Positions 1,933 to 39,634 of a stretch of DNA of 64,000 bases are shown one piece after another. The position numbers and the translations under genes were made by a program. The notes under the pieces were generated by a model. The model was not told the DNA's origin. It saw only the letters and a list, made by a program, of their open reading frames with translations, and searched no databases. Position 1 is the first letter of the stretch, and every line of letters starts with the position of its first letter. The DNA comes from Alphaproteobacteria bacterium (GTDB lineage Bacteria > Pseudomonadota > Alphaproteobacteria > SHWA01), in contig SHWA01000002.1 of NCBI GenBank assembly GCA_009693995.1, positions 138 through 64,137 on the forward strand, given 5' to 3'.

Positions 1933-3798
1933 ATGAGCACGCCGGAAGGCCCAGTCGAGGAGTTCCGCCGCGCGGTCGCGGCGACCATGCGCGCCATCAG
2001 CAGCGACCCCGAGATGTCGCTGACCTTCACCCCCGACCGCCGCTCGCTCTCGGGCCACGAGGCGCGCATCCCCATACCCGCCCGGCACCTGCCGGAGGAG
2101 GACGTGCGCCGGGTGCGCGGCGAGGCGGATTCCATGGCGCTCTGGCGCGCCAACCACAACGAGAAGCTGCACGCCCGGCGCATGCCCCAGGGCCGGCCGG
2201 CCCAGGACATCTACAACCAGGCGGAGCGCGCCCGCTGCGAGGCGATCGGCGCCAACGCCATGGCCGGCGTCGCCACCAATCTCGCCGCGGCGCTGACCGA
2301 GCGCTGCGCGGGGCGCGGCTTCGAGGCGATCACCAACGCGGCGGACGCGCCGATCGGCGACGCGGTCGCCCTGCTGCTGCGCGAGCACCTGACCGGCGCG
2401 CCTCCGCCCGAGAACGCCCGCACCATGGTCGATGCCTGCCGCGAATTCATCGAGGGCCGCGCCGGCCCGCACTGGGAGACCCTCGCCGCCACGCTCGGCA
2501 ACCAGGAACGCTTCGCCCGCACCATCCGCCGGCTGATCGCCGATCTGGAGATGGGCGAGGCCGAGGCCGACCAGGAGGAGACCAGCGAGGAGTTCATGGA
2601 AGCGGAGGCCGACGAGGGCGGTGCCGACCCCGACGCCGAGGGCGACGCCGCGGAAGCGCGCCAGCCTGACAGCGCCTCCTCGGGCCCCGCCGACGTCGAC
2701 GACTCCCTCGACAGTGACGTGACCGACGCCGACGCGGAAGCCGACGAGCCGATGCCGGGCGAAGGCGACGAGGACGGCCGCCGCGCCGGCCAGCCCCGGC
2801 GCCCGGACGGAGCGGGCACGCACGGCCCCAACAGCAACTACCGCCCCTTCACCGTCATGTACGACGAGGTGGTGGAGGCGGACGAGTTGTGCGAGGCGGA
2901 GGAGCTCACGCGGCTGCGCGCCCAGCTCGACCGCCAGCTCGCGAGCCTGCAGGGCGTGGTCAGCCGCCTCGCCAACCGGCTGCAGCGCCGCCTGCTGGCC
3001 AAGCAGACCCGCTCCTGGGAGTTCGACCTGGACGAGGGCCTGCTCGATAGCGGGCGCCTCAGCCGCGTGGTCACCAATCCGGTCCACGCGCTCTCCTACA
3101 AGGTCGAGAAGGAAACCAATTTCCGCGACACCGTGGTCTCGCTGCTGATCGACAACTCGGGCTCCATGCGCGGCCGCCCGATCACGGTCGCGGCGATGAG
3201 CGCCGACATCCTCGCGCGCACCCTCGAGCGCTGCGCGGTCAAGGTCGAGATCCTCGGCTTCACCACCCGCGCCTGGAAGGGCGGCCAGTCGCGCGAGAAG
3301 TGGCTGGTGGAGGGCAAGCGCGCCAACCCGGGCCGCCTGAACGATCTGCGCCACATCGTCTACAAGGACGCCGACCGCCCCTGGCGGCGCGCGCGCAAGT
3401 GCCTCGGCCTGATGCTGCGCGAGGGCCTGCTGAAGGAGAACATCGACGGCGAGGCCCTGCTCTGGGCGCACCAGCGCCTGCTCGCCCGCCGCGAGGACCG
3501 CCGCATCCTGATGGTGATCTCGGACGGCGCGCCGGTGGACGACTCCACCCTCTCCGCCAACCCGAGCAGCTATCTGGAGCAGCATCTGCGCGCCGTGATC
3601 GACTGGATCGAGGTGCGCTCGCCGGTCGAGCTGACCGCGATCGGCATCGGCCACGACGTGACCCGCTATTACCGCCGCGCCGTCACCATCGTCGATGCCG
3701 AGCAGCTCGGCGGCACCATGCTGGAGAAGCTGGCCGAACTGTTCGACGACGACACGGCGGTGCGCTCCGCCACGCCGCGCCGCCGCGCCGCGCGCTGA
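1933..3798 (+). CDS. cobT: Aerobic cobaltochelatase subunit CobT
   Basis: 621-aa ORF with a long acidic D/E linker and a C-terminal vWA domain carrying a MIDAS-like DNSGSMRG motif. Paired with cobS. Confidence 0.9.
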
Positions 3799-3928
3799 TC
3801 CGTCGGCAACCTTGGCGAGTCGCCCCCGCCTGACAGCCGCCGCGTCACGCTTTCTTAACCCTTAACCATTCCGCAACGTCTGCGCCGCCATCATCCGCGG
3901 TGGCTTCCCGAGCGGCCGCCAGCCGCGC

Positions 3929-11804: not shown

Positions 11805-13034
11805 CTAAAGGCTGACTTCTTCCGCCTCCTTGGGCGCCTTGCAGACCACGGCCGAGCCGCGCTCCTGAATCAGTTGCCGGCAGACCGCGAACTTGGCGTC
11901 GATGGCGTCGTCGTTCTGGTCGGGGTCGTGATGGGAGATGTGCAGCTCCTTGACCTCGGCGCGTACCGCCAGATCGACCACCTGGCTGACGCAGGAATGG
12001 CCCCAGCCGACCTTGGATTCGTATTCGCGGTCGGTGTAGGTGGTGTCGGTGATCAGGATGTCGCACTCGCGCACGAAGTTGGCGAGGCGGTTGACGTAGT
12101 CCTCCGAGAAGAAGTCGCTGTCGGGCAGGAACATCTCGTTGTCGGTGACGTAGCAGACGGCGCGCCCGCCGTACTCGACGTGGTAGCCGAGGCAGTACCC
12201 CGGGTGCGACAGCAGCATGGTCTTCACGGTCACGCCGTCGATCTCGTAGGTCCCCTCTTTCAAGTCACGGAAGGTCACGTAGGCGCCGAACTCGCGGATG
12301 GTGATCGGGAAGTAGACTCCCTCCATCTGCGACGAGATCAGGTCACGCATGGAGAGTTTACCGTGGGAGGCGCCGAGGATCTCGAACTGGTTGCCCTGCA
12401 TGTAGAGCGGCGTGAAGAACGGGAACGCGTTGATATGATCCCAGTACGGGTGCGAGATGAAGATCTTGCCGTCGATGCGCCGCTTGCGCTTGGCCATCAG
12501 CTCGTTCGCCAGCTCCTTGATGCCGCTGCCGCAATCGAAGATGAACAGCTTGTCGTTGGGCATCGTGAGGGCGACGCAGTTGGTGTTCCCGCCGTAGTGC
12601 AGCGAGCGCTGGCCCGACACGGGCAGCGTGCCGCGCACGCCCCAGTACTTGAGCGTCATCTTGTCGGACAGGACGGACAGGATGTCGGGCAGGAAGGAGG
12701 CGGGGCGGATCGGTTTCAGGATATAGCCGTTGGCGCCCATCTCGAACGCGCGCTTGCGGTCGAACTCGTAGGCCTTGCCCGAGAGGATGATGATCTTGAG
12801 CCCCGGCACGTCGGGGGACGCGCGCAGCTGCCGGCACATCTCCAGCCCGTCGAGTTCGGGCATCATGATGTCGAGCAGCACGCAGTCGGGCTTGGCCTGC
12901 GGAATCTCGGCCAGCGCCTCCACGCTGGAGGAGTTGGTAACCACTTCGTGGCCGGCCTTCTCCAGCAGCGCCTTGGCCATGCCGAGGGCGGTCGGATCGT
13001 CGTCGAGCAGATAGAACTTCAGCCGTTCCGCCAT
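11805..13034 (-). CDS. Response-regulator receiver domain fused to an MBL-fold metallo-hydrolase
   Basis: 409-aa ORF. REC domain in the N-terminal ~120 aa (LLDDDP...DCVLLDIMMPELDG...LSGK). The remainder is beta-lactamase fold (FIFDCGSG, ISHPYWDHINAFPFF, HISHHDPD). Confidence 0.75.
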   Translation of the reverse strand: MAERLKFYLLDDDPTALGMAKALLEKAGHEVVTNSSSVEALAEIPQAKPDCVLLDIMMPELDGLEMCRQLRASPDVPGLKIIILSGKAYEFDRKRAFEMGANGYILKPIRPASFLPDILSVLSDKMTLKYWGVRGTLPVSGQRSLHYGGNTNCVALTMPNDKLFIFDCGSGIKELANELMAKRKRRIDGKIFISHPYWDHINAFPFFTPLYMQGNQFEILGASHGKLSMRDLISSQMEGVYFPITIREFGAYVTFRDLKEGTYEIDGVTVKTMLLSHPGYCLGYHVEYGGRAVCYVTDNEMFLPDSDFFSEDYVNRLANFVRECDILITDTTYTDREYESKVGWGHSCVSQVVDLAVRAEVKELHISHHDPDQNDDAIDAKFAVCRQLIQERGSAVVCKAPKEAEEVSL

Positions 13035-13153
13035 GCCGTCATCCGCAGTCTCCCGCCTGGGGACGAAGGCCCGCCCCTGGCCCCATGGCGCCGGCGCCTC
13101 GCCGCTCCAGGACTATACATGCCCCGCCGGGCGTGAGAAATCACCCCCTCGGC

Positions 13154-31958: not shown

Positions 31959-33167
31959 CTAGCGTTCCTTGGCGCGTTTGGAGGGAGCCCCGAACACCCG
32001 TGCGGTGTCAGCGCCGAGCGCCGGCGGGCGGCTGCGGAAGGCGGGGCGGACACCGTCGAAGGAGAGCGGCAGGCCCATCAGGCGCATGGCGCCGTCGGGA
32101 GAGGGCTGGATCATGCCGAGGGCTTCGGTCTGCGCGTCCGCCACCACCTGATCCACCGATTGCAGCGCGGCGCACGGGATGCCGGCGGCCTCCAGCTTGG
32201 CGATCCATACGTCGCGCGGCGCGGTCTGCAACACCGCCTCCACGGCCGCGTTCACCGCCGCGCGGTTGCGCACCCGCTCGGGGTTGGTCGCGAAACGCGC
32301 GTCCCGCAGCCACTCTGGCTTCTCGAGGACGGCACACAGCTTGGCGAACAATGAATCGTTGCCGGCGGCGACCACCAGATAATGGTCCGCCGCCCGGTAG
32401 GCCTTGTAGGGCACCAGTATCGCCGCCTCGGAGCCGAGGCGTTCCTGCACGAAGCCGTCCGCCAGGTACATGGCGACCGGCACCGTCATCCAGGAGAGCG
32501 CGGTCTCGTAGAGCGAGCCGTCGACCTGACAGCCGACGCCGGTGACATGGCGCCGGCCAAGGGCGGCGAGAATGCCGATCACCGACCACATGCCGCAAGC
32601 GATGTCGATGATCGACGGGCCGACCCGGACCGGGGGGCGCCCCATCTCGCCGGTGATGCTCATGATGCCGCCATAGGCCTGCATCAGGGGATCGTAGCCG
32701 GGCCGCTCCGCCTTGGGGCCGCGGGCGCCGAAGGCGCCGAGGTTGCAGTAGATCAGGCGCGGATTGCGTTCCCTGAGCCGCGCGCACAGGCCGAGGCGCG
32801 CCACCTGGCCGGGGCGCATGTTCTGCAGCACCACGTCGGCTTCGGCGGCGATGAAATCGGCGAGGCGGGTGGTCTCCGCGGGTGCCTTGAAATCCACCAC
32901 CACCGAGAGCTTGTTGCGGTTCAGGCTCTGGAAGGTGGCGGAGGAGCCGAGCCAGAAGGGCGGCCCCCAGGCGCGGGCGTCGTCACCCTTCCCCGGGCGC
33001 TCGACCTTGATCACGGTCGCGCCCAGGTCGGCCAGCACCTGGCCGGCGAAGGGAGCCGCAACACTGTGTCCCAGCTCGACGACGGTGATGCCGCTGAGCG
33101 GCGCGTGCGGCTCCATGGAGGGTGCGAGCGATTCCCGAGGATTGCCGGGAAACTCTACGAGCCGCAC
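31959..33167 (-). CDS. Family III CoA-transferase (CaiB/BaiF)
   Basis: Contains GITVVELGHSVAAPFAGQVLADLGATVIKVERP and GYDPLMQAYGGIMSITGE. The true start may be MEPHAPL at 33116. Confidence 0.85.
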   Translation of the reverse strand: MRLVEFPGNPRESLAPSMEPHAPLSGITVVELGHSVAAPFAGQVLADLGATVIKVERPGKGDDARAWGPPFWLGSSATFQSLNRNKLSVVVDFKAPAETTRLADFIAAEADVVLQNMRPGQVARLGLCARLRERNPRLIYCNLGAFGARGPKAERPGYDPLMQAYGGIMSITGEMGRPPVRVGPSIIDIACGMWSVIGILAALGRRHVTGVGCQVDGSLYETALSWMTVPVAMYLADGFVQERLGSEAAILVPYKAYRAADHYLVVAAGNDSLFAKLCAVLEKPEWLRDARFATNPERVRNRAAVNAAVEAVLQTAPRDVWIAKLEAAGIPCAALQSVDQVVADAQTEALGMIQPSPDGAMRLMGLPLSFDGVRPAFRSRPPALGADTARVFGAPSKRAKER

Positions 33168-33201
33168 CCGGACCGGTCAACGCATGGCTGGGGCGTGCGG
33201 C

Positions 33202-33817
33202 TCAGGCGACCGCCGTCACGGCACGGGGTGTCGGCGTCGCCTCCATGCGCAGCGCCGCCACGGCCTTGGCGAAGGCGGCCGCGAGCGGAGAGAGCGCGCG
33301 CTCGCCGGGGCGGATCAGGGGCACTGCCCGGCTCAGGTAGGGAGCCGCGAGCGGGCGCCGGTCGAGGGCGGTTGAGGGAGACCAGGCCGAGCTCGTGGTC
33401 ACCGTCGGCGAGCCCTTGGAACACCTCGCCTTGGGAGCGCTCGCGCAGTTCGAACTGGGCGTCGGCATGGTCGCGGACGAAGCCGGCGAGGAGGCCGGCC
33501 AGGCCCTCGCCGCCGACCAGGGTGGAGACGCCGAGGCGGAGCACGCCACCGGCGCCGGCCTGGAAGCGCTTGGCGGCGGCGCGGGCGGCGGTGGTGTGCA
33601 CATCGACCTGGGCCAGGTGCTGGCGCACCAGGTTGCCGAGCGGGGTGAGCCGCACGCAGCCGCGGTCGCGGTCGAACAGGGAACCCCGGAACTCGTGCTC
33701 GAGACCTTGGATCGCGCGGGTGAGGGCGGGCTGGGTCACGTTGCAGCGATCCGCCGCCTTGGTGAAGTTGCGCGTCTCGCAGAGCGCGAGGAAGTAGCGG
33801 ATCTGGTGCATTTCCAT
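33202..33817 (-). pseudogene. LysR-family regulator, apparently frameshifted and internally shortened
   Basis: The frame from ATG 33817 gives a good LysR HTH and the start of the effector domain (MEMHQIRYFLALCETRNFTKAADRCNVTQPALTRAIQGLE ... DHELGLVS), then turns into P/R/G-rich nonsense. A +1 shift near 33370 gives LDRRPLAAPYLSRAVPLIRPGERALSPLAAAFAKAVAALR, which looks like a LysR C-terminus ending at 33202. Combined length is only ~205 aa against the usual ~300. Confidence 0.45.
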
Positions 33818-33938
33818 GGGAGGCTCCCTTTATTTCCGTCTGCGCCGCGCCGCGAGGGCCGGCTGCGACGGTCTGAGGATGACCCGTCCCTGGTCACGAT
33901 GTCCTCCTGGAGAGATCACGAAAGAATCACGGGCCGCA

Positions 33939-33992
33939 TTGACCGATCTCGTCGTCATCGAGGCCTACGACGTGAACGCGGGGTGGCCGTGA
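33939..33992 (+). repeat. 54-bp direct repeat, copy 1 (ends ...VNAGWP-TGA)
   Basis: ttgaccgatctcgtcgtcatcgaggcctacgacgtgaacgcggggtggccgtga matches 35362-35415 at 49 of 54 positions by direct comparison. Confidence 0.8.
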
Positions 33993-34039: not shown

Positions 34040-35239
34040 TTAAGGCAACCGAATGACTATCGCCCCGAGCCGCCAAAGAGATTGAAAAGTGCGCCGCGCA
34101 TAGGCGATCAACGCCTCATGGTCCGCGTTAATTCCGGCGCCAAATATGATGTCGCGGATGCGGGCCTTGCCGGTCACGGCTTTGACGAGGGCAACCTGGG
34201 CCGGGGCGAGATCGCAATTCATCTTCTCCCAAAGCAGTTTGCCGGAGCCATCCGGTTGGAGCTTCAGCGTGGTGGCGGTCTTTGCCATGGGGATGAAGTC
34301 GAGAAATTCGGGGCTGTCGAAGTCGATGAGATAGTCGGCGACGGGGCGCTCCGCGCGGGTGGCAATAAAGGTATGACAGGCGTTGAGGGTGTTGAACCTC
34401 TCCATGGCCTGCCAAATTTTCTCGGATGGCAGTTTGTTGACGGCACTGTAGAGCACACTATCTCCTGGAGCGCGTTGCTCCGGATAATAGCAAATATTCT
34501 CAAGCCATCCTTGGAAGGAAAGACCGGCGTTTCGAACAAACTCAAGAACGTCACCGACGGAATAGCTCCTCGCGCGGGCCTGCAAATAAATGTCCACGAT
34601 CCCTGCATCGGTGTTCAGATATGGGTCGCGCGGGATGTAGCTCTTGATTGGATGCTCGGGGGGAATCTGGGCGATGGTGTCGCGCACAATGTCGAACCCG
34701 ATTGGCCCGGGTTTGACTCCCATGATCTCGAACATGGACATGAGAGTTTCGACGCCGAAACGCCCGTACTTTGCATAGAGCAAGATGACCGCGACCCCCT
34801 CGGGCCGAAGGAGCTTGCCCAGGGTGGTCATTCCCGCCTGCGGGTCGGCCATATGGTGCAGAACGCCGGTGCAGACGATGAGGTCGAAGGTCTGCCCAAG
34901 CGTATCGGCTTCCTCGATCGACAATCGGCGGAGTTCGAGGTTCGAGAGGCCGTATTTCTCCTTGAGCGCGGATTCGTGACGCAGCGCCGCGCTGGTCACG
35001 TCGATGCCCAGCACCCGCGCGGTGGGATTGTGGAGCGCGATCGATGCCGCCTGGGTCGTGCCGCATCCCGCGGAGAGAATATTAAGACCCTCGGGGTACG
35101 CCGCCATGCGCGGCCAGTATTGCCGAAAGGCACTCTTTGGATCGCATAAGAGCAACGGCAAGTCATCGTTTGGCGGCGGATACGGCCATGCTTCGTATTG
35201 ACGCGAAATTGCGTCGTTCAGCGGTGAGTCGTTCATCAT
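34040..35239 (-). CDS. Class I SAM-dependent methyltransferase with an uncharacterised ~230-aa C-terminal extension
   Basis: 399-aa ORF with motif I ILSAGCGTTQ and the post-I/II region VLGIDVT...FDLIVCTGVLHHMADP...LLRPEGV. Base composition is visibly A/T-richer than the flanks. Confidence 0.75.
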   Translation of the reverse strand: MMNDSPLNDAISRQYEAWPYPPPNDDLPLLLCDPKSAFRQYWPRMAAYPEGLNILSAGCGTTQAASIALHNPTARVLGIDVTSAALRHESALKEKYGLSNLELRRLSIEEADTLGQTFDLIVCTGVLHHMADPQAGMTTLGKLLRPEGVAVILLYAKYGRFGVETLMSMFEIMGVKPGPIGFDIVRDTIAQIPPEHPIKSYIPRDPYLNTDAGIVDIYLQARARSYSVGDVLEFVRNAGLSFQGWLENICYYPEQRAPGDSVLYSAVNKLPSEKIWQAMERFNTLNACHTFIATRAERPVADYLIDFDSPEFLDFIPMAKTATTLKLQPDGSGKLLWEKMNCDLAPAQVALVKAVTGKARIRDIIFGAGINADHEALIAYARRTFQSLWRLGAIVIRLP

Positions 35240-35361
35240 CGCGATTTAATCATCCTCCCCCGGCTTGCGCCAGCAGGCAATCCGGGGCTGACGCAGGCCG
35301 CACGCGACCGGGTGATTGCGCTCCGCCTTGCCTTCCGCGCCAAGAAGGATGCCTCGCGGCG

Positions 35362-35415
35362 TTGACCGATCCCGCCGTCATCGAAGCCCACGACGTGAAC
35401 GCAGGGTGGCCGTGA
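35362..35415 (+). repeat. 54-bp direct repeat, copy 2
   Basis: ttgaccgatcccgccgtcatcgaagcccacgacgtgaacgcagggtggccgtga, which translates LTDPAVIEAHDVNAGWP-stop. Confidence 0.8.
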
Positions 35416-35667
35416 AATCCAGGCGCCCGACACCGTGGTCCGGGAGGCCCTGCAAGCTATTACGCTGCCGCCTCTGGAGTAACCGGGTCTTTATTCGACA
35501 TACAACCCTCCCATGGTCTGCAAATTGCGGCCGGCGGGGGCTCGGCGGTTGCAACCGCCGAAACCGCGAGAAGGGATCTCGCATGACCGCAACCGGCCAA
35601 GCAACGGCCACCCCGCCACCCGTGCGCACGGGCGGGGCGACTCTTGGGGTCTTGCAACTTGCAGTCT

Positions 35668-36471
35668 ATGAGAAACGTCACACCCGTTCGCCCGGTGGCG
35701 CCCTATATCGGCGGGAAACGAAACCTATCGCGCCGCCTCGTCGAGCTGATCGATTCGATCCCTCACGAGAGCTATGCCGAAGTATTCGTGGGCATGGGCG
35801 GAGTGTTCTTTCGCCGCCACAGGGTGCCCAAGGCCGAGGTGATCAACGACTATGGTCGGGACGTCGCCACGCTTTTCCGCATCCTCCAGCGACACTACGT
35901 CCAGTTCTTGGACATGATGAAGTATCAGCTCACCACGCGCGCCGAATTCGAGCGCCTGGCGGCCACCGACCCGGCGACGTTGACCGACCTGGAGCGGGCG
36001 GCCCGATTCCTCTACCTCCAGCGCACGGCCTTCGGGGGCAAGGTGGCCGGCCGCAATTTCGGCGTCAGCACAGGCCTGCCAGCCAGGTTCGACCTCACCA
36101 AGCTGGTACCCATGCTGGAGTCCGTCCATGAACGGCTTGCCGGCGTCGTCATCGAATGCCTGCCCTACGGCGACTTCATCGAGCGGTACGACCGGCCCGG
36201 CGTCCTGTTCTACGCCGACCCGCCCTACCAAGGCAGCGAGGGGCACTATGGGAAGGGGCTATTCTCGGCCGAAGACCATGCCCGCCTGGCGGAGCTGCTG
36301 CTATCGATCAAGGGCCGCTTCATCCTGTCGATCAACGACAGCCCAACCATCCGCAAGCTCTACCGCCGTGGGGCCTCGATCGAGGCCCTCGACACCACCT
36401 ACACAATCGCTGGCAGCGACCACGCCCAACGCGTCCGGGAGCTGGTCATCACCGCTCCCGGGGCACGTTAG
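35668..36471 (+). CDS. D12-class N6-adenine DNA methyltransferase (Dam-like, orphan)
   Basis: Starts MRNVTPVRPVAPYIGGKRNL (SAM-binding YxGGK). Catalytic DPPY appears in FYADPPYQG. ATG 35668 is preferred to the track start 35644. Confidence 0.8.
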   Translation: MRNVTPVRPVAPYIGGKRNLSRRLVELIDSIPHESYAEVFVGMGGVFFRRHRVPKAEVINDYGRDVATLFRILQRHYVQFLDMMKYQLTTRAEFERLAATDPATLTDLERAARFLYLQRTAFGGKVAGRNFGVSTGLPARFDLTKLVPMLESVHERLAGVVIECLPYGDFIERYDRPGVLFYADPPYQGSEGHYGKGLFSAEDHARLAELLLSIKGRFILSINDSPTIRKLYRRGASIEALDTTYTIAGSDHAQRVRELVITAPGAR

Positions 36472-36475
36472 CCAG

Positions 36476-36808
36476 CTATCCTTGAACGATCTTGGACCCG
36501 CCCGTCATGACGATGCCGGACCCTGGCCCCATCCGTATCTCAGTGTTCTGAGACCGCATGTTGGTGTTGAAGATGCTTGTTCGCCCGGTGGCGTTGTCGC
36601 CTCCGCCGGTCACGAGAACCCGCGCCGAGGTGATGCTGGAACCCGTCACGGCGATGTTGCCGTCTTGATGGTCGAAGCGGATATTTCCAAGAGCGACCAT
36701 CGTCGCGTTGGTGACACTGATCGAGCCAGTTCCAGCCAGAGCTTGCAGTGTGTCGTTATATGCTGCCTGCAGATCGCGGCTAACGCGGTTGGCGCTGCTC
36801 AAAACCAC
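36476..36808 (-). CDS. Hypothetical protein or gene fragment with G/T/S/N-rich beta-strand repeats
   Basis: 110-aa GTG-initiated ORF (ISVTNATMVALGNIRFDHQDGNIAVTGSSITSARVLVTGGGDNATG). No recognisable signal peptide or RBS. It may be the C-terminal piece of a larger adhesin- or tail-fibre-like gene. Confidence 0.3.
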   Translation of the reverse strand: MVLSSANRVSRDLQAAYNDTLQALAGTGSISVTNATMVALGNIRFDHQDGNIAVTGSSITSARVLVTGGGDNATGRTSIFNTNMRSQNTEIRMGPGSGIVMTGGSKIVQG

Positions 36809-36811
36809 CCG

Positions 36812-36940
36812 TCACTTGTGCCTAAAACCAGGCGTCGCGCTACAACGGTCTGCGACCACCTCTGCATAGTGCGCGGCCTTGAGGCCGATTCCGGCTATGG
36901 CCGGGATCGGCAGAGGGCGTGGGGTCGGAGTGGGGGCCAC
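36812..36940 (-). pseudogene. 5' stump of a DUF692/MNIO (BufB-like) gene
   Basis: GTG at 36940 (GGAG 7 nt upstream) lies 25 nt after the DUF2282 stop. It gives MAPTPTPRPLPIPAIAGIGLKAAHYAEVVADR, matching the G-(I/L)-G-L-(R/K)-x-x-H-Y N-terminal motif of DUF692 enzymes. It then diverges (CSATPGFRHK) and stops at TGA 36812-36814. Confidence 0.55.
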
Positions 36941-36965
36941 CGCCGTGCTCCGCGACCGGCTGCGC

Positions 36966-37232
36966 TCAGCTGGCCTTGAGCGAGGCGCCGACGATCTTCT
37001 CGCAGGCACCGGCCGGAACGTAGATCCAGGCGTCCTTCTGGGCGTTGGTCTTGGACGTGCCGGCGCAGGAGGAGGCCGCAGTCTGGCAGTCGTTCTTGCC
37101 GGCCTTGACGACGCCGTAGCACTTCTCGGCCTTGAACGTCGGGGCCGCCGTGGGCTGCGCCTCGACCGCGGCCGCCGCCATCGCGAGCGCCGCCGTCATG
37201 ACCGTGCCGATCAGTATCTTGCTGGCATTCAT
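36966..37232 (-). CDS. DUF2282-family secreted 4-Cys peptide (bufferin BufA1-type RiPP precursor)
   Basis: 88 aa with an AAGGAG RBS 7 nt upstream of ATG 37232. Signal peptide MNASKILIGTVMTAALAMAAAAVEA. Four Cys at positions 38, 49, 56 and 77 in EKCYG, NDCQ, SSCAG and GACEKI contexts. It is the 3' end of track ORF 36966..38612. Confidence 0.8.
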   Translation of the reverse strand: MNASKILIGTVMTAALAMAAAAVEAQPTAAPTFKAEKCYGVVKAGKNDCQTAASSCAGTSKTNAQKDAWIYVPAGACEKIVGASLKAS

Positions 37233-37441
37233 CGTGTCAGTCTCCTTCAGGTTGGTGGAAGTCGGACCCTGGTCGTCCAGAGCCGGAGTGCTGCCGCGGG
37301 TTGCAGCGCCTCGCCGCGACCGGGACAGATTAGGGAGGGTTCCGGCCGTTGCGGTCTCAATAGTCCGTGACGGCGGCGTGAGTTGGAAATGCCGTCTCGC
37401 CATCGGCTCATGCCACGCGTGCATGTCACCGACCCTGGTTC

Positions 37442-39634
37442 TCACTCGCTCGCGCCGGTGATCAGGCGTGTGCTCTGCCGGTAGGTCAGGTACGACCACC
37501 CCCACTGCATCACGACCGAGGCGCGCGCCCGCATCTCGGCCAGAAACAGCACGTGCACCGCGCCCCACAGCCACCAGGCGAGCGGCCCGGTCAGCTTGAT
37601 GCGGCCGAAGTCGGCGACCGCGGCAGCGCGGCCGATGGTGGCGAGACTCCCCTGGTGGACGTACGTGAAGGGCGCCGGTTCCGGCCGGCCGGAAAGGCGC
37701 GCGCGCAGCACCTTGGCGACGTGGACGGCGCCCTGCTTCGCCGCCGGGGCCAGTCCCGGCACCGGCTTGCCTTCCCAAGCGTCGGCCGCCGCCGTGTCGC
37801 CGATCGCGAACACGCCCTCGCGGCCGATCACATTCAGGTGCGGGCCGACCTTCACACGCCCGGCGCGGTCGGCCTCGGCCTTCAGCCACTTGGCCGCGGG
37901 CGAGGCCATGACGCCGGCCGCCCACAGCACGGTCCGAGCCGGAATGTGTTCGCCGCCGACGGTGACGCCGGTCGCGTCCACTTGCTCGACCCGGCTTGCG
38001 GTCTTCACCTCGACGCCGAGCGCTGCGAGTTGGCGCTGGGCGGCCGCCGACATGTCCTCGGCGAAGGAAGCGAGCACGCGCGGCCCCGCTTCGATCAGGA
38101 CGACGCGCGCCGCCGCCGGATCGATGCTGCGGAACTCGCCTTCCAGGCCCTTGCGCGCGAGCTCGGCGATGGCGCCGGCGAGCTCGACCCCGGTTGGGCC
38201 GCCGCCGACGATGCAGAAGGTCAGCCAGGCGCGCCGCGCCGCCTCGTCGGACGCGGTCTCCGCTGCCTCGAAGGCGGTGAGGAGCCGGCGGCGCACCTCG
38301 GTCGCGTCGGAAACCTTCTTTATGCCCGGCGCGTCGGCCTCCCACGCGTCCTTGCCGAAATAGGCGTGCCGCGCCCCCGTCGCCAGCACCAGGTAGTCGT
38401 AGGTGATGCGCTGGTCGTCGGCGATCACGGCGCGCGCCCCCACGTCGACGTCGCCGACCCGCGCCATCAGCACCTGCACGTTCGGCTGGTCGCGGAAGAG
38501 ACTGCGGATCGGGGTGGCGATGTCGGACGGCGCCAGCGTCGCGGTCGCCACCTGGTAGAGCAGCGGCTGGAACAGGTGGTAGTTGCGCCGGTCGACCAGG
38601 GTGACTCGGCACGGGGTGTGGCGGAGCGCCTTGGCCAGGGTCACGCCGCCAAACCCGGCGCCGACCACGACTATGTGGGGCAAGCGCATGCGCGCCTTCG
38701 CATCCAGCTCCGGCGCCTGCGCCGCCGCCTCGTGCAGCAGCAGCGCATCGACCGCGAGCGCGCCGTGGCTGCGGAAGGCGAACAGCAGGCCGAACAGCGC
38801 CCAGTAGCCGAGGTCGCCCCTGGCGAGCTCGGTGTATTCGCCGAGCAGGAGCGCGCCGAGCGACCAGAGCACCAGCAGCGCCCCGCCGGCCCGGGTCGCC
38901 AGGCCGAGCGCCAGCAGGGCCGGAATCACGGCCGCAGGCACGAACCCGAGCGGCCCGCCGGCGCCGGCGAAAAGCGGCAGGGCGGTGAAGTCGAGGCGCA
39001 GCAGCCCGGGCTGCCCGGTGAGCGACTCGGCGACATTGCGCGCCGCCAGGAACAGCATGCCGGCGAGGCCCAGGCGGAGCGCCAGCAGATAGAGCGGCGC
39101 GCCAACCCGTGCGGTGGCTGCCAGCGCGGCCGCGAGGGCGCCGGCGAAGGGAACCGCGCTCCGCGCCAGACCCGGCGCCAGCAGGCGGTCGAGGGAGAGG
39201 GCGCCGGCCCCGCGCACCACGAACCAGCCCAGCAGCAGCACCCAGTAGACGTGCTCATTCAGCGCCTGGTACTCGAACTGGACCACGAGCGTGAGCGCCA
39301 GCATGGCCAGGGCGGCGACCCGGGTGCCGAGACCCAAGATCAGGGCGGCGCCGCCGATCACCTCGATGGTCGCACCAACTACCGCCGCCACCTCGGGCGC
39401 CAGCCAGGAAACCGGGTATTCGTTGCTGGCGAGCAGGAGCGCCGTCTGCCAGTCCGCCACCTTGAGCAGGCCCGAGAACAGGAATACCGGCCCGATCCAG
39501 AGGCGGATCACCAGGTCGACCACGGGGCCGCCGAACCGTTCCACCAGATGGAGCATGTCCTTGGCAGCGAGCATCAGACGCCACACCGGTGGTGCCTCGA
39601 GGGTCGCGGAATCGCGGTTGCGAGCATCACTCAT
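37442..39634 (-). CDS. Fusion protein: two tandem DoxX-like membrane domains plus a type II NADH dehydrogenase (NDH-2) module
   Basis: Single uninterrupted 730-aa ORF. Residues ~38-152 are DoxX-like (RLWIGPVFLFSGLLKV...EVIGGAALILGLGTRVAAL...GAGALSLDRLL). Residues ~183-299 are a second, more divergent DoxX-like block (LALGLATRAGGALL...HGALAVDALL). Residues ~317-730 are NDH-2 (HIVVVGAGFGGV, NYHLFQPLLYQVAT, IVGGGPTGVELAG, FAIGD). Confidence 0.8.
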   Translation of the reverse strand: MSDARNRDSATLEAPPVWRLMLAAKDMLHLVERFGGPVVDLVIRLWIGPVFLFSGLLKVADWQTALLLASNEYPVSWLAPEVAAVVGATIEVIGGAALILGLGTRVAALAMLALTLVVQFEYQALNEHVYWVLLLGWFVVRGAGALSLDRLLAPGLARSAVPFAGALAAALAATARVGAPLYLLALRLGLAGMLFLAARNVAESLTGQPGLLRLDFTALPLFAGAGGPLGFVPAAVIPALLALGLATRAGGALLVLWSLGALLLGEYTELARGDLGYWALFGLLFAFRSHGALAVDALLLHEAAAQAPELDAKARMRLPHIVVVGAGFGGVTLAKALRHTPCRVTLVDRRNYHLFQPLLYQVATATLAPSDIATPIRSLFRDQPNVQVLMARVGDVDVGARAVIADDQRITYDYLVLATGARHAYFGKDAWEADAPGIKKVSDATEVRRRLLTAFEAAETASDEAARRAWLTFCIVGGGPTGVELAGAIAELARKGLEGEFRSIDPAAARVVLIEAGPRVLASFAEDMSAAAQRQLAALGVEVKTASRVEQVDATGVTVGGEHIPARTVLWAAGVMASPAAKWLKAEADRAGRVKVGPHLNVIGREGVFAIGDTAAADAWEGKPVPGLAPAAKQGAVHVAKVLRARLSGRPEPAPFTYVHQGSLATIGRAAAVADFGRIKLTGPLAWWLWGAVHVLFLAEMRARASVVMQWGWSYLTYRQSTRLITGASE

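Follow-up and report, generated by a model that had tools for sequence, protein, structure and literature searches.

An intact bufferin precursor gene beside a putative bufB remnant: a probably decayed Buf1-type locus at a junction with apparently foreign DNA in an alphaproteobacterium

How does a bufferin precursor gene come to stand without the genes for the enzymes that mature its product? The question is raised by a locus in a stretch of 64,000 nucleotides (nt) from an Alphaproteobacteria bacterium (GenBank assembly GCA_009693995.1, contig SHWA01000002.1, positions 138 to 64,137), which is referred to here as the window and numbered from its first letter. In Caulobacter vibrioides the multinuclear non-heme iron oxidase (MNIO) BufB1 and the DUF2063 protein BufC1 are required and sufficient for the conversion of the two central cysteines of the precursor BufA1 into 5-thiooxazoles. 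Export of the peptide takes the Sec route, copper binding depends on the heterocycles, and deletion of bufB or bufC abolishes copper protection, with DoxX being dispensable (PMC11626156). In the window, a bufA gene is followed by a short reading frame that resembles only the start of bufB. The locus is very probably a decayed Buf1-type bufferin locus in which this bufB remnant (bufB′) has been joined to a foreign truncated gene by deletion or illegitimate recombination. The features on and beside the junction are as follows.

36966..37232, minus strand: bufA, intact Buf1/DUF2282 precursor gene, 88 amino acids (aa), with a Pfam PF10048 match, a signal-like hydrophobic N-terminus and four conserved cysteines.
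36845..36940, minus strand: putative bufB′ stub, with a GTG start and the first 32 codons of the DUF692/MNIO maturase, identified by a custom BufB profile, shuffles and tblastn.
36790..36844, minus strand: junction zone of uncertain origin, with an in-frame TGA at 36814-36812, lying between the ends of the two homologies.
36476..36808, minus strand: open reading frame (ORF) of 110 aa, 5′-truncated member of an uncharacterised family of about 150 aa, identified by phmmer and a family profile, in the same frame as the bufB′ stub.
37233..37441, minus strand: intergenic region upstream of bufA, 209 nt, holding AAGGAG at 37247-37242, as read from the sequence.
37442..39634, minus strand: DoxX-NDH-2 fusion gene, 730 aa, a BufD (DoxX)-like component upstream of bufA, assigned from Pfam and homologous loci.

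The bufA gene runs on the minus strand from an ATG at 37232 to a TGA at 36968-36966, and the AAGGAG ribosome-binding site lies 9 nt 5′ of the ATG. A preliminary description of this DNA, made from its letters, had reported an 88-aa gene with a strong ribosome-binding site and four cysteines in the contexts EKCYG, NDCQ, SSCAG and GACEKI, and all of these are present. It had also assigned the product to DUF2282/BufA1, and the profile comparison agrees, with a match to Pfam PF10048 (DUF2282) at E=1.1e-23 and 83.4 bits against a cut-off of 22.4. In an alignment of 21 sequences (BufA and 20 homologues) the four cysteines, C38, C49, C56 and C77, occupy invariant columns, and BufA keeps 27 of the 27 invariant columns of the family. 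By inspection the N-terminus consists of MNASK, the hydrophobic stretch ILIGTVMTAALAMAAAAV and EAQ; it is signal-like and aligns with the same region of the homologues. NCBI lists an identical BufA from an Alphaproteobacteria metagenome-assembled genome (MAG), annotated as a DUF2282 protein. The other homologues listed in a search of 5.8 billion proteins are 57-81% identical; among the matches listed, those that cover at least 90% of BufA are 57-70% identical, and the top-ranked of these 63-67%. The gene is an intact Buf1/DUF2282 bufferin precursor gene.

Upstream of bufA, a search for sigma-70-like promoters gave a sole match, at 37240-37213, which overlaps the start codon and is unconvincing. 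A guessed extracytoplasmic function (ECF)-type promoter, GGAACC-N18-GTC, was dropped, as it is not common to the upstream regions of 17 related bufA genes.

Downstream, a GTG at 36940 starts exactly 25 nt after the bufA stop, with GGAG at 36951-36948, 7 nt 5′ of the GTG. The frame has 42 codons, reads VAPTPTPRPLPIPAIAGIGLKAAHYAEVVADRCSATPGFRHK and stops at the TGA at 36814-36812 (codon 43). It was compared with a hidden Markov model (HMM) built from nine BufB proteins that are encoded downstream of bufA in related loci. When the whole window was searched in six frames with this HMM, the stub ranked first, with E=0.018 at HMM positions 11-30, and the runner-up had E=1.1. The stub segment AIAGIGLKAAHYAEVVADR aligns to the BufB consensus kaaGiGlraphyeeivatrp. 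Scored alone, the stub reaches 13.5 bits, and none of 5000 shuffled versions of it exceeds 3.5 bits. In tblastn searches it matches the start of the gene directly after bufA in several related loci (L025, L020, L014, L052 and L045). Metagenome contigs searched with a degenerate pattern for the stub peptide gave no match.

The BufB similarity ends at codon 32 (R, 36847-36845), ahead of the conserved EVHxEN motif. Of the full-length BufB enzyme, which has about 280-296 aa in the relatives, the body from EVHxEN onward is absent, and what is left is a remnant, not an enzyme. Because sequence, strand, spacing and N-terminal register all agree, the short ORF is taken to be the 5′ end of bufB. The preliminary description had noticed both the GTG frame 25 nt downstream of bufA and the loss of family resemblance after about 32 codons, and had read the frame as an N-terminal remnant of bufB. 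The spacing proves exact, the similarity does stop at codon 32, and the custom profile, the shuffles and the position of the tblastn matches bear out the reading. Custom BufB and BufC HMMs detected no other bufB and no bufC in six frames of the 64-kb window, and the best BufC match there (E=0.37) lies at an unrelated position. The earlier proposal that most of bufB and all of bufC have been lost, leaving a precursor without a maturase encoded in cis, agrees with this search. A weak terminator-like hairpin at 36847-36833, at the end of the BufB similarity, folds no better than shuffled sequences.

The arrangement in relatives points in the same direction. The comparison is based on 51 fetched loci, those that encode relatives of the upstream 730-aa protein (numbered with the prefix L). 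In ten of these, bufA is followed after 29-87 nt, versus 25 nt in the window, by an ORF that matches the BufB (DUF692) profile. The BufB ORFs have 280-310 aa in nine of the ten and the N-terminal sequence ...aGiGLRaPHYeeIVAtRPavGFLEVHAENY..., and a DUF2063-type bufC comes after bufB, often followed by doxX. The synteny comparison that the preliminary description had proposed was answered here, with bufA-bufB-bufC contiguous in ten related loci. Contiguous bufA-bufB-bufC is recorded for L003, L004, L014, L016-L020, L025, L042, L045, L047 and L052.

In L004, from an Alphaproteobacteria MAG, the bufB at 3076-3880 on the plus strand is split, matching the HMM in two frames (positions 8-58 and 56-277). 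This implies a frameshift, which may be an assembly error or another decaying bufB.

What lies on the other side of the junction? The G+C content drops from 0.72 (36900-37199) to 0.60 (36600-36899), and the 34-37 kb region has the lowest G+C content of the window, 0.58-0.64 versus roughly 0.70 elsewhere. The shift in composition noted earlier is real, but it had been placed exactly at 36812, and homology puts it at about 36845.

The first ORF beyond the junction is the one of 110 aa. A phmmer search with it against 1.84 billion representative proteins returned 61 proteins at E≤1e-3, mostly 145-155 aa long, and an HMM of this family matches the ORF with E=3.5e-33. Its residues 8-109 align to family residues 47-151, and the N-terminal 46 or so residues of the family are missing. 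Confident similarity starts at about residues 6-8 of the ORF. With translation continued through the TGA, the alignment can be extended, at low confidence, as far back as position 31 of the family HMM, where it abuts the BufB similarity. Stub and 110-aa ORF share one frame, separated by the single TGA and one codon. The shared frame, which chance would give one time in three, is treated as a coincidence or as a fusion in frame that has decayed, and not as a sign of function.

The family has no assignment in Pfam, PHROG or PADLOC. Its members adjoin genes for a phage-type integrase (L054), for HicB and HTH_17 proteins (L055, L056), and for WYL and DnaB_C proteins (L053), a setting of the mobile-element type. 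No other piece of the family was found elsewhere in the window.

Three other readings of these fragments were tried and dropped. The 110-aa ORF was considered as an ORFan or a spurious frame, since a word-indexed search found only the ORF itself, but the full HMMER scan found the family. The stub was considered as the N-terminus of the same family, but the N-termini of the family differ from it, and an IGLK match to member P0122 is not collinear. An inversion or transposition was considered as well, and the missing halves of bufB and of the gene for the 150-aa protein were searched for in the window; neither was found.

Further from the junction, the low-G+C segment and its left edge hold the following features.

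35644..36471, plus strand: Dam-like (D12 class) N6-adenine DNA methyltransferase, matched by Pfam MethyltransfD12 and phrog_56.
35345..35415, plus strand: 71-nt direct repeat, copy 2, 83% identical to copy 1.
34040..35239, minus strand: class I S-adenosylmethionine (SAM)-dependent methyltransferase, 399 aa, matched by Pfam Methyltransf_12, _31 and _11.
33922..33992, plus strand: 71-nt direct repeat, copy 1, flanking the SAM methyltransferase gene.
33155..33817, minus strand: truncated gene for a LysR-family regulator, on the left edge of the low-G+C segment, with a partial match to LysR models.

The Dam-like gene matches MethyltransfD12 with E=2.8e-25 and phrog_56 with E=1.4e-76. Its nearest annotated DNA match, at 73% nucleotide identity, is on a linear 54.9-kb plasmid of Azospirillum thermophilum that carries Gam, DUF3164, RepA and an integrase (tyrosine recombinase). 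No restriction enzyme was seen beside the Dam-like gene, and no integrase or transposase inside the low-G+C segment. The SAM methyltransferase gene is the part of the segment with the lowest G+C content, 0.53-0.60, and is bracketed by the two 71-nt direct repeats. Two copies of the repeat are found in the window versus 0 expected, and both end in ...VNAGWP-TGA in one frame. No further copies were detected in the window or in viral or metagenome contigs, and the repeats have no significant fold. The LysR gene matches positions 1 to about 155 of models of some 300 residues. The rest of its ORF is without similarity and overlaps the start of a CoA-transferase gene, and a C-terminal LysR remnant in another frame was not supported by Pfam. 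The truncation suggests that the low-G+C segment is flanked on its left by a second deletion.

The segment from 33.8 to 36.85 kb is considered foreign and horizontally acquired because it has the lowest G+C content, carries a phage-type Dam gene, and contains a family member whose homologues lie beside integrase, HicB and WYL genes. The preliminary description had seen the boundary as the edge of an adjacent insert that caused the loss. That part does not stand, in that the neighbouring 110-aa gene is itself truncated at its 5′ end. Because the genes on both sides of the junction are truncated, the boundary is interpreted as a scar of deletion or illegitimate recombination and not as the end of an inserted element. 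The loss of bufBC need not have been a direct effect of the foreign segment. By homology, the breakpoint would lie between 36845 and about 36790.

The history that we propose begins with the order doxX::ndh2 - bufA - bufB - bufC. A deletion or illegitimate recombination would then have fused bufB, at codon 32, with the gene for the 150-aa protein, at roughly codon 27-47. Lost in this event would have been the MNIO catalytic body, its DUF2063 partner BufC and the 5′ portion of the foreign segment. The stub ORF of 42 codons and the 110-aa remnant are most likely relics without a function. That the stub is still recognisable, with a start codon and a ribosome-binding site, points to a fairly recent, though uncalibrated, event. 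The bufA gene would still be expressed, and Sec export and cleavage of its product would yield a peptide of about 60 aa. Because BufB and BufC are required in C. vibrioides (PMC11626156) and both are lost here, the peptide is probably unmodified, unless bufBC genes are present elsewhere in the genome. It would then not be a functional metallophore unless such genes act in trans.

The DoxX component of the operon has survived, in an unusual position upstream of bufA. The 730-aa protein has an N-terminal DoxX domain (Pfam, residues 40-120, E=4.7e-13) and a C-terminal NDH-2-type flavoprotein part (Pyr_redox_2, E=4.7e-47, and NDH2_C); in NCBIfam it weakly matches the HvfX Cu-RiPP maturation DoxX family. 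Of the parts of a complete bufferin cluster, the window has DoxX, at the E value just given, and lacks bufC. The earlier account of the loss of the operon holds for bufB and bufC and is corrected for DoxX, which is retained upstream as the fusion.

The association of the fusion with bufferin genes is not limited to the window. A bufA lies within 10 kb in 17 of the 27 loci with full-length homologues of the fusion, and in none of the 19 loci that match the NDH-2 part alone. In L014 (Rhodanobacteraceae MAG), L020 (Lysobacterales MAG) and L047 (Alphaproteobacteria MAG) the order is bufA-bufB-bufC followed by the DoxX-NDH-2 fusion gene, which occupies the position of bufD (doxX) and begins about 40-130 nt beyond the matched bufC sequence. 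The window locus shares this gene set, including the fusion, whose protein is 50-60% identical to theirs; it differs in that these three operons are complete with the fusion gene last, whereas the window has the fusion gene in front and has lost bufB and bufC. Homologues of the fusion in GTDB species-representative genomes have at most about 62% identity.

Among the known systems nearest to the locus is the buf1 operon of C. vibrioides, CCNA_03363-03366, with bufA1 (DUF2282), bufB1 (MNIO/DUF692), bufC1 (DUF2063) and bufD1 (DoxX), to which the gig operon of Cupriavidus metallidurans is related. Shared with these are a DUF2282 precursor with a signal-like N-terminus and four cysteines, the start of an MNIO gene right after bufA, and DoxX in the locus. 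In contrast to them, bufB in the window is cut to 32 codons and bufC is absent; DoxX forms a fusion with an NDH-2-type flavoprotein, encoded upstream of bufA, instead of having a separate gene at the end; and no sigma or anti-sigma genes were seen beside the locus.

An orphan Buf1 precursor is in itself an already known and common situation. A "sizeable proportion" of Buf1 precursor genes is unlinked to an MNIO gene, some genomes hold more precursors than bufferin loci, and for orphan precursors both modification by enzymes from other loci and no modification are considered possible (PMC12452194). The precursor in the window is like these in having no intact maturase in cis, and the same choice between modification in trans and none applies to it. 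Among the fetched loci, a stand-alone bufA beside the fusion gene, with no bufB or bufC within 10 kb, is found in L009 (10897-11124), L010 (12147-12380), L011 (12775-12996), L012 (13114-13350) and L026 (7400-7621). In L042 a stand-alone copy (12809-13045) lies beside the fusion gene, and a complete operon is present upstream. The stand-alone bufA is convergent with the fusion gene in five loci and co-directional in L026. No bufB stub was detected at these six stand-alone genes; unlike them, the window keeps a recognisable bufB remnant, which marks its origin by deletion.

These loci bear on the rival explanation that survives best, that bufA is a maintained functional orphan. Its product would be modified in trans by a distant bufBC, or would act as an MNIO-free partner of the DoxX-NDH-2 protein, and the locus would be a working two-gene module and no dead operon. 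We regard this as possible but doubtful. It draws on the stand-alone bufA genes beside full-length fusion genes, which have no stubs, and on the published suggestion of modification in trans, made for genomes with unlinked and supernumerary Buf1 precursors (PMC12452194). It is also in keeping with the retention in bufA of every invariant family residue and a good ribosome-binding site, but an intact bufA is equally expected soon after a recent deletion, and its state fits either a recent deletion or continued selection. Against it, a second bufBC was not found in the 64-kb window, and in C. vibrioides the unmodified precursor gives no copper protection and DoxX is dispensable (PMC11626156).

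A further reading is that the DUF2282 peptide and DoxX-NDH-2 constitute a conserved two-gene redox module that is able to work without a neighbouring MNIO, and that the lineage of the window shed bufBC and kept the module. It is put forward because a stand-alone bufA recurs beside the fusion gene in L009-L012, L026 and L042, and because the fusion gene comes after bufC in L014, L020 and L047. Taken jointly, these two statements are improbable, and we offer them tentatively. The word NADH was not found in the text of the two bufferin papers cited here (PMC12452194, PMC11626156).

It is very unlikely that the junction is an assembly or binning chimera and that the real genome has an intact bufABC. 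The sequence does come from a MAG, with an abrupt shift of G+C content at the join. A contig of the independent Logan assembly of run SRR8561391 (L001) is, however, 100% identical to 38517..36794 and spans the junction, and the genes of a 5.5-kb ENA contig that encodes an identical BufA agree with those of the window, on either side of the junction, in the succession of their lengths and Pfam families. The repeat search of the window found no repeat at the join that could have caused a mis-join, and the reading frame is preserved between the gene fragments. The Logan contig does stop at 36794, just 50 nt past the junction, which could speak for a chimera; weighed together, these observations make a chimera at the join unlikely. 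That L001 ends at this point may be due to branching of the assembly graph (strain heterogeneity) or simply to coverage.

A coincidental similarity between stub and BufB, with bufA having always stood alone as in Rhodoplanes and Xanthobacteraceae loci, is slightly less credible still. Such stand-alone genes beside the fusion gene do exist in other genomes, the similarity is short, and the public DUF692 models are silent; but the stand-alone loci have no such stub, and the stub is the best BufB match of the entire window, well clear of both the next match and its own shuffles. It also falls on the right strand at the N-terminal positions of the HMM, at the distance from bufA and with the ribosome-binding site and start codon described above, close to where intact bufB genes start in relatives. 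Finally, a functional fusion gene expressed by readthrough or recoding of the TGA can be set aside: the two fragments do lie in one frame with a single TGA between them, but a shared frame has a one-in-three chance of arising, the bufB part has no catalytic sequence, the other part lacks the N-terminal 46 or so residues of its family, and an Rfam scan near the locus found no RNA elements, including no selenocysteine insertion sequence (SECIS).

Several points nonetheless weigh against a decayed bufferin locus produced by deletion, and they should be considered together. The translations of the stub (65 aa and 42 aa) have no match to DUF692/MNIO models of Pfam or NCBIfam at E≤1. The preliminary description had looked to such models for its confirmation and the homology rests on the custom HMM and on position, over a homologous stretch of just 20 residues or so. 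The search for bufBC covers one 64-kb contig of a MAG, and a bufBC acting in trans may lie elsewhere in the genome. The expression, export and modification of BufA in this organism are predicted by analogy, which limits the reading. Stand-alone bufA genes recur beside DoxX-NDH-2 genes in other genomes, so the loss of the cis maturase need not mean a loss of function. No close relative with the allele that preceded the deletion was recovered, the best BufA homologues of at least 90% coverage being 63-67% identical, and the breakpoint is bracketed just to 36790-36845. A decayed Buf1-type locus remains, with these points taken into account, the reading that we hold to be very probable.

The case is one of ordinary operon decay in an uncultured alphaproteobacterium, and as a single case it changes little. 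It carries a caution for annotation, in that a working bufferin pathway should not be assumed here from the DUF2282 gene, and it adds a further data point to the question of whether orphan precursors are modified in trans. The association of bufA with DoxX-NDH-2 genes is the one thread with some novelty and may merit a wider survey. For the bufferin family, the locus would be a clear example of one route to an orphan precursor, namely the deletion of its maturase at a junction with foreign DNA.

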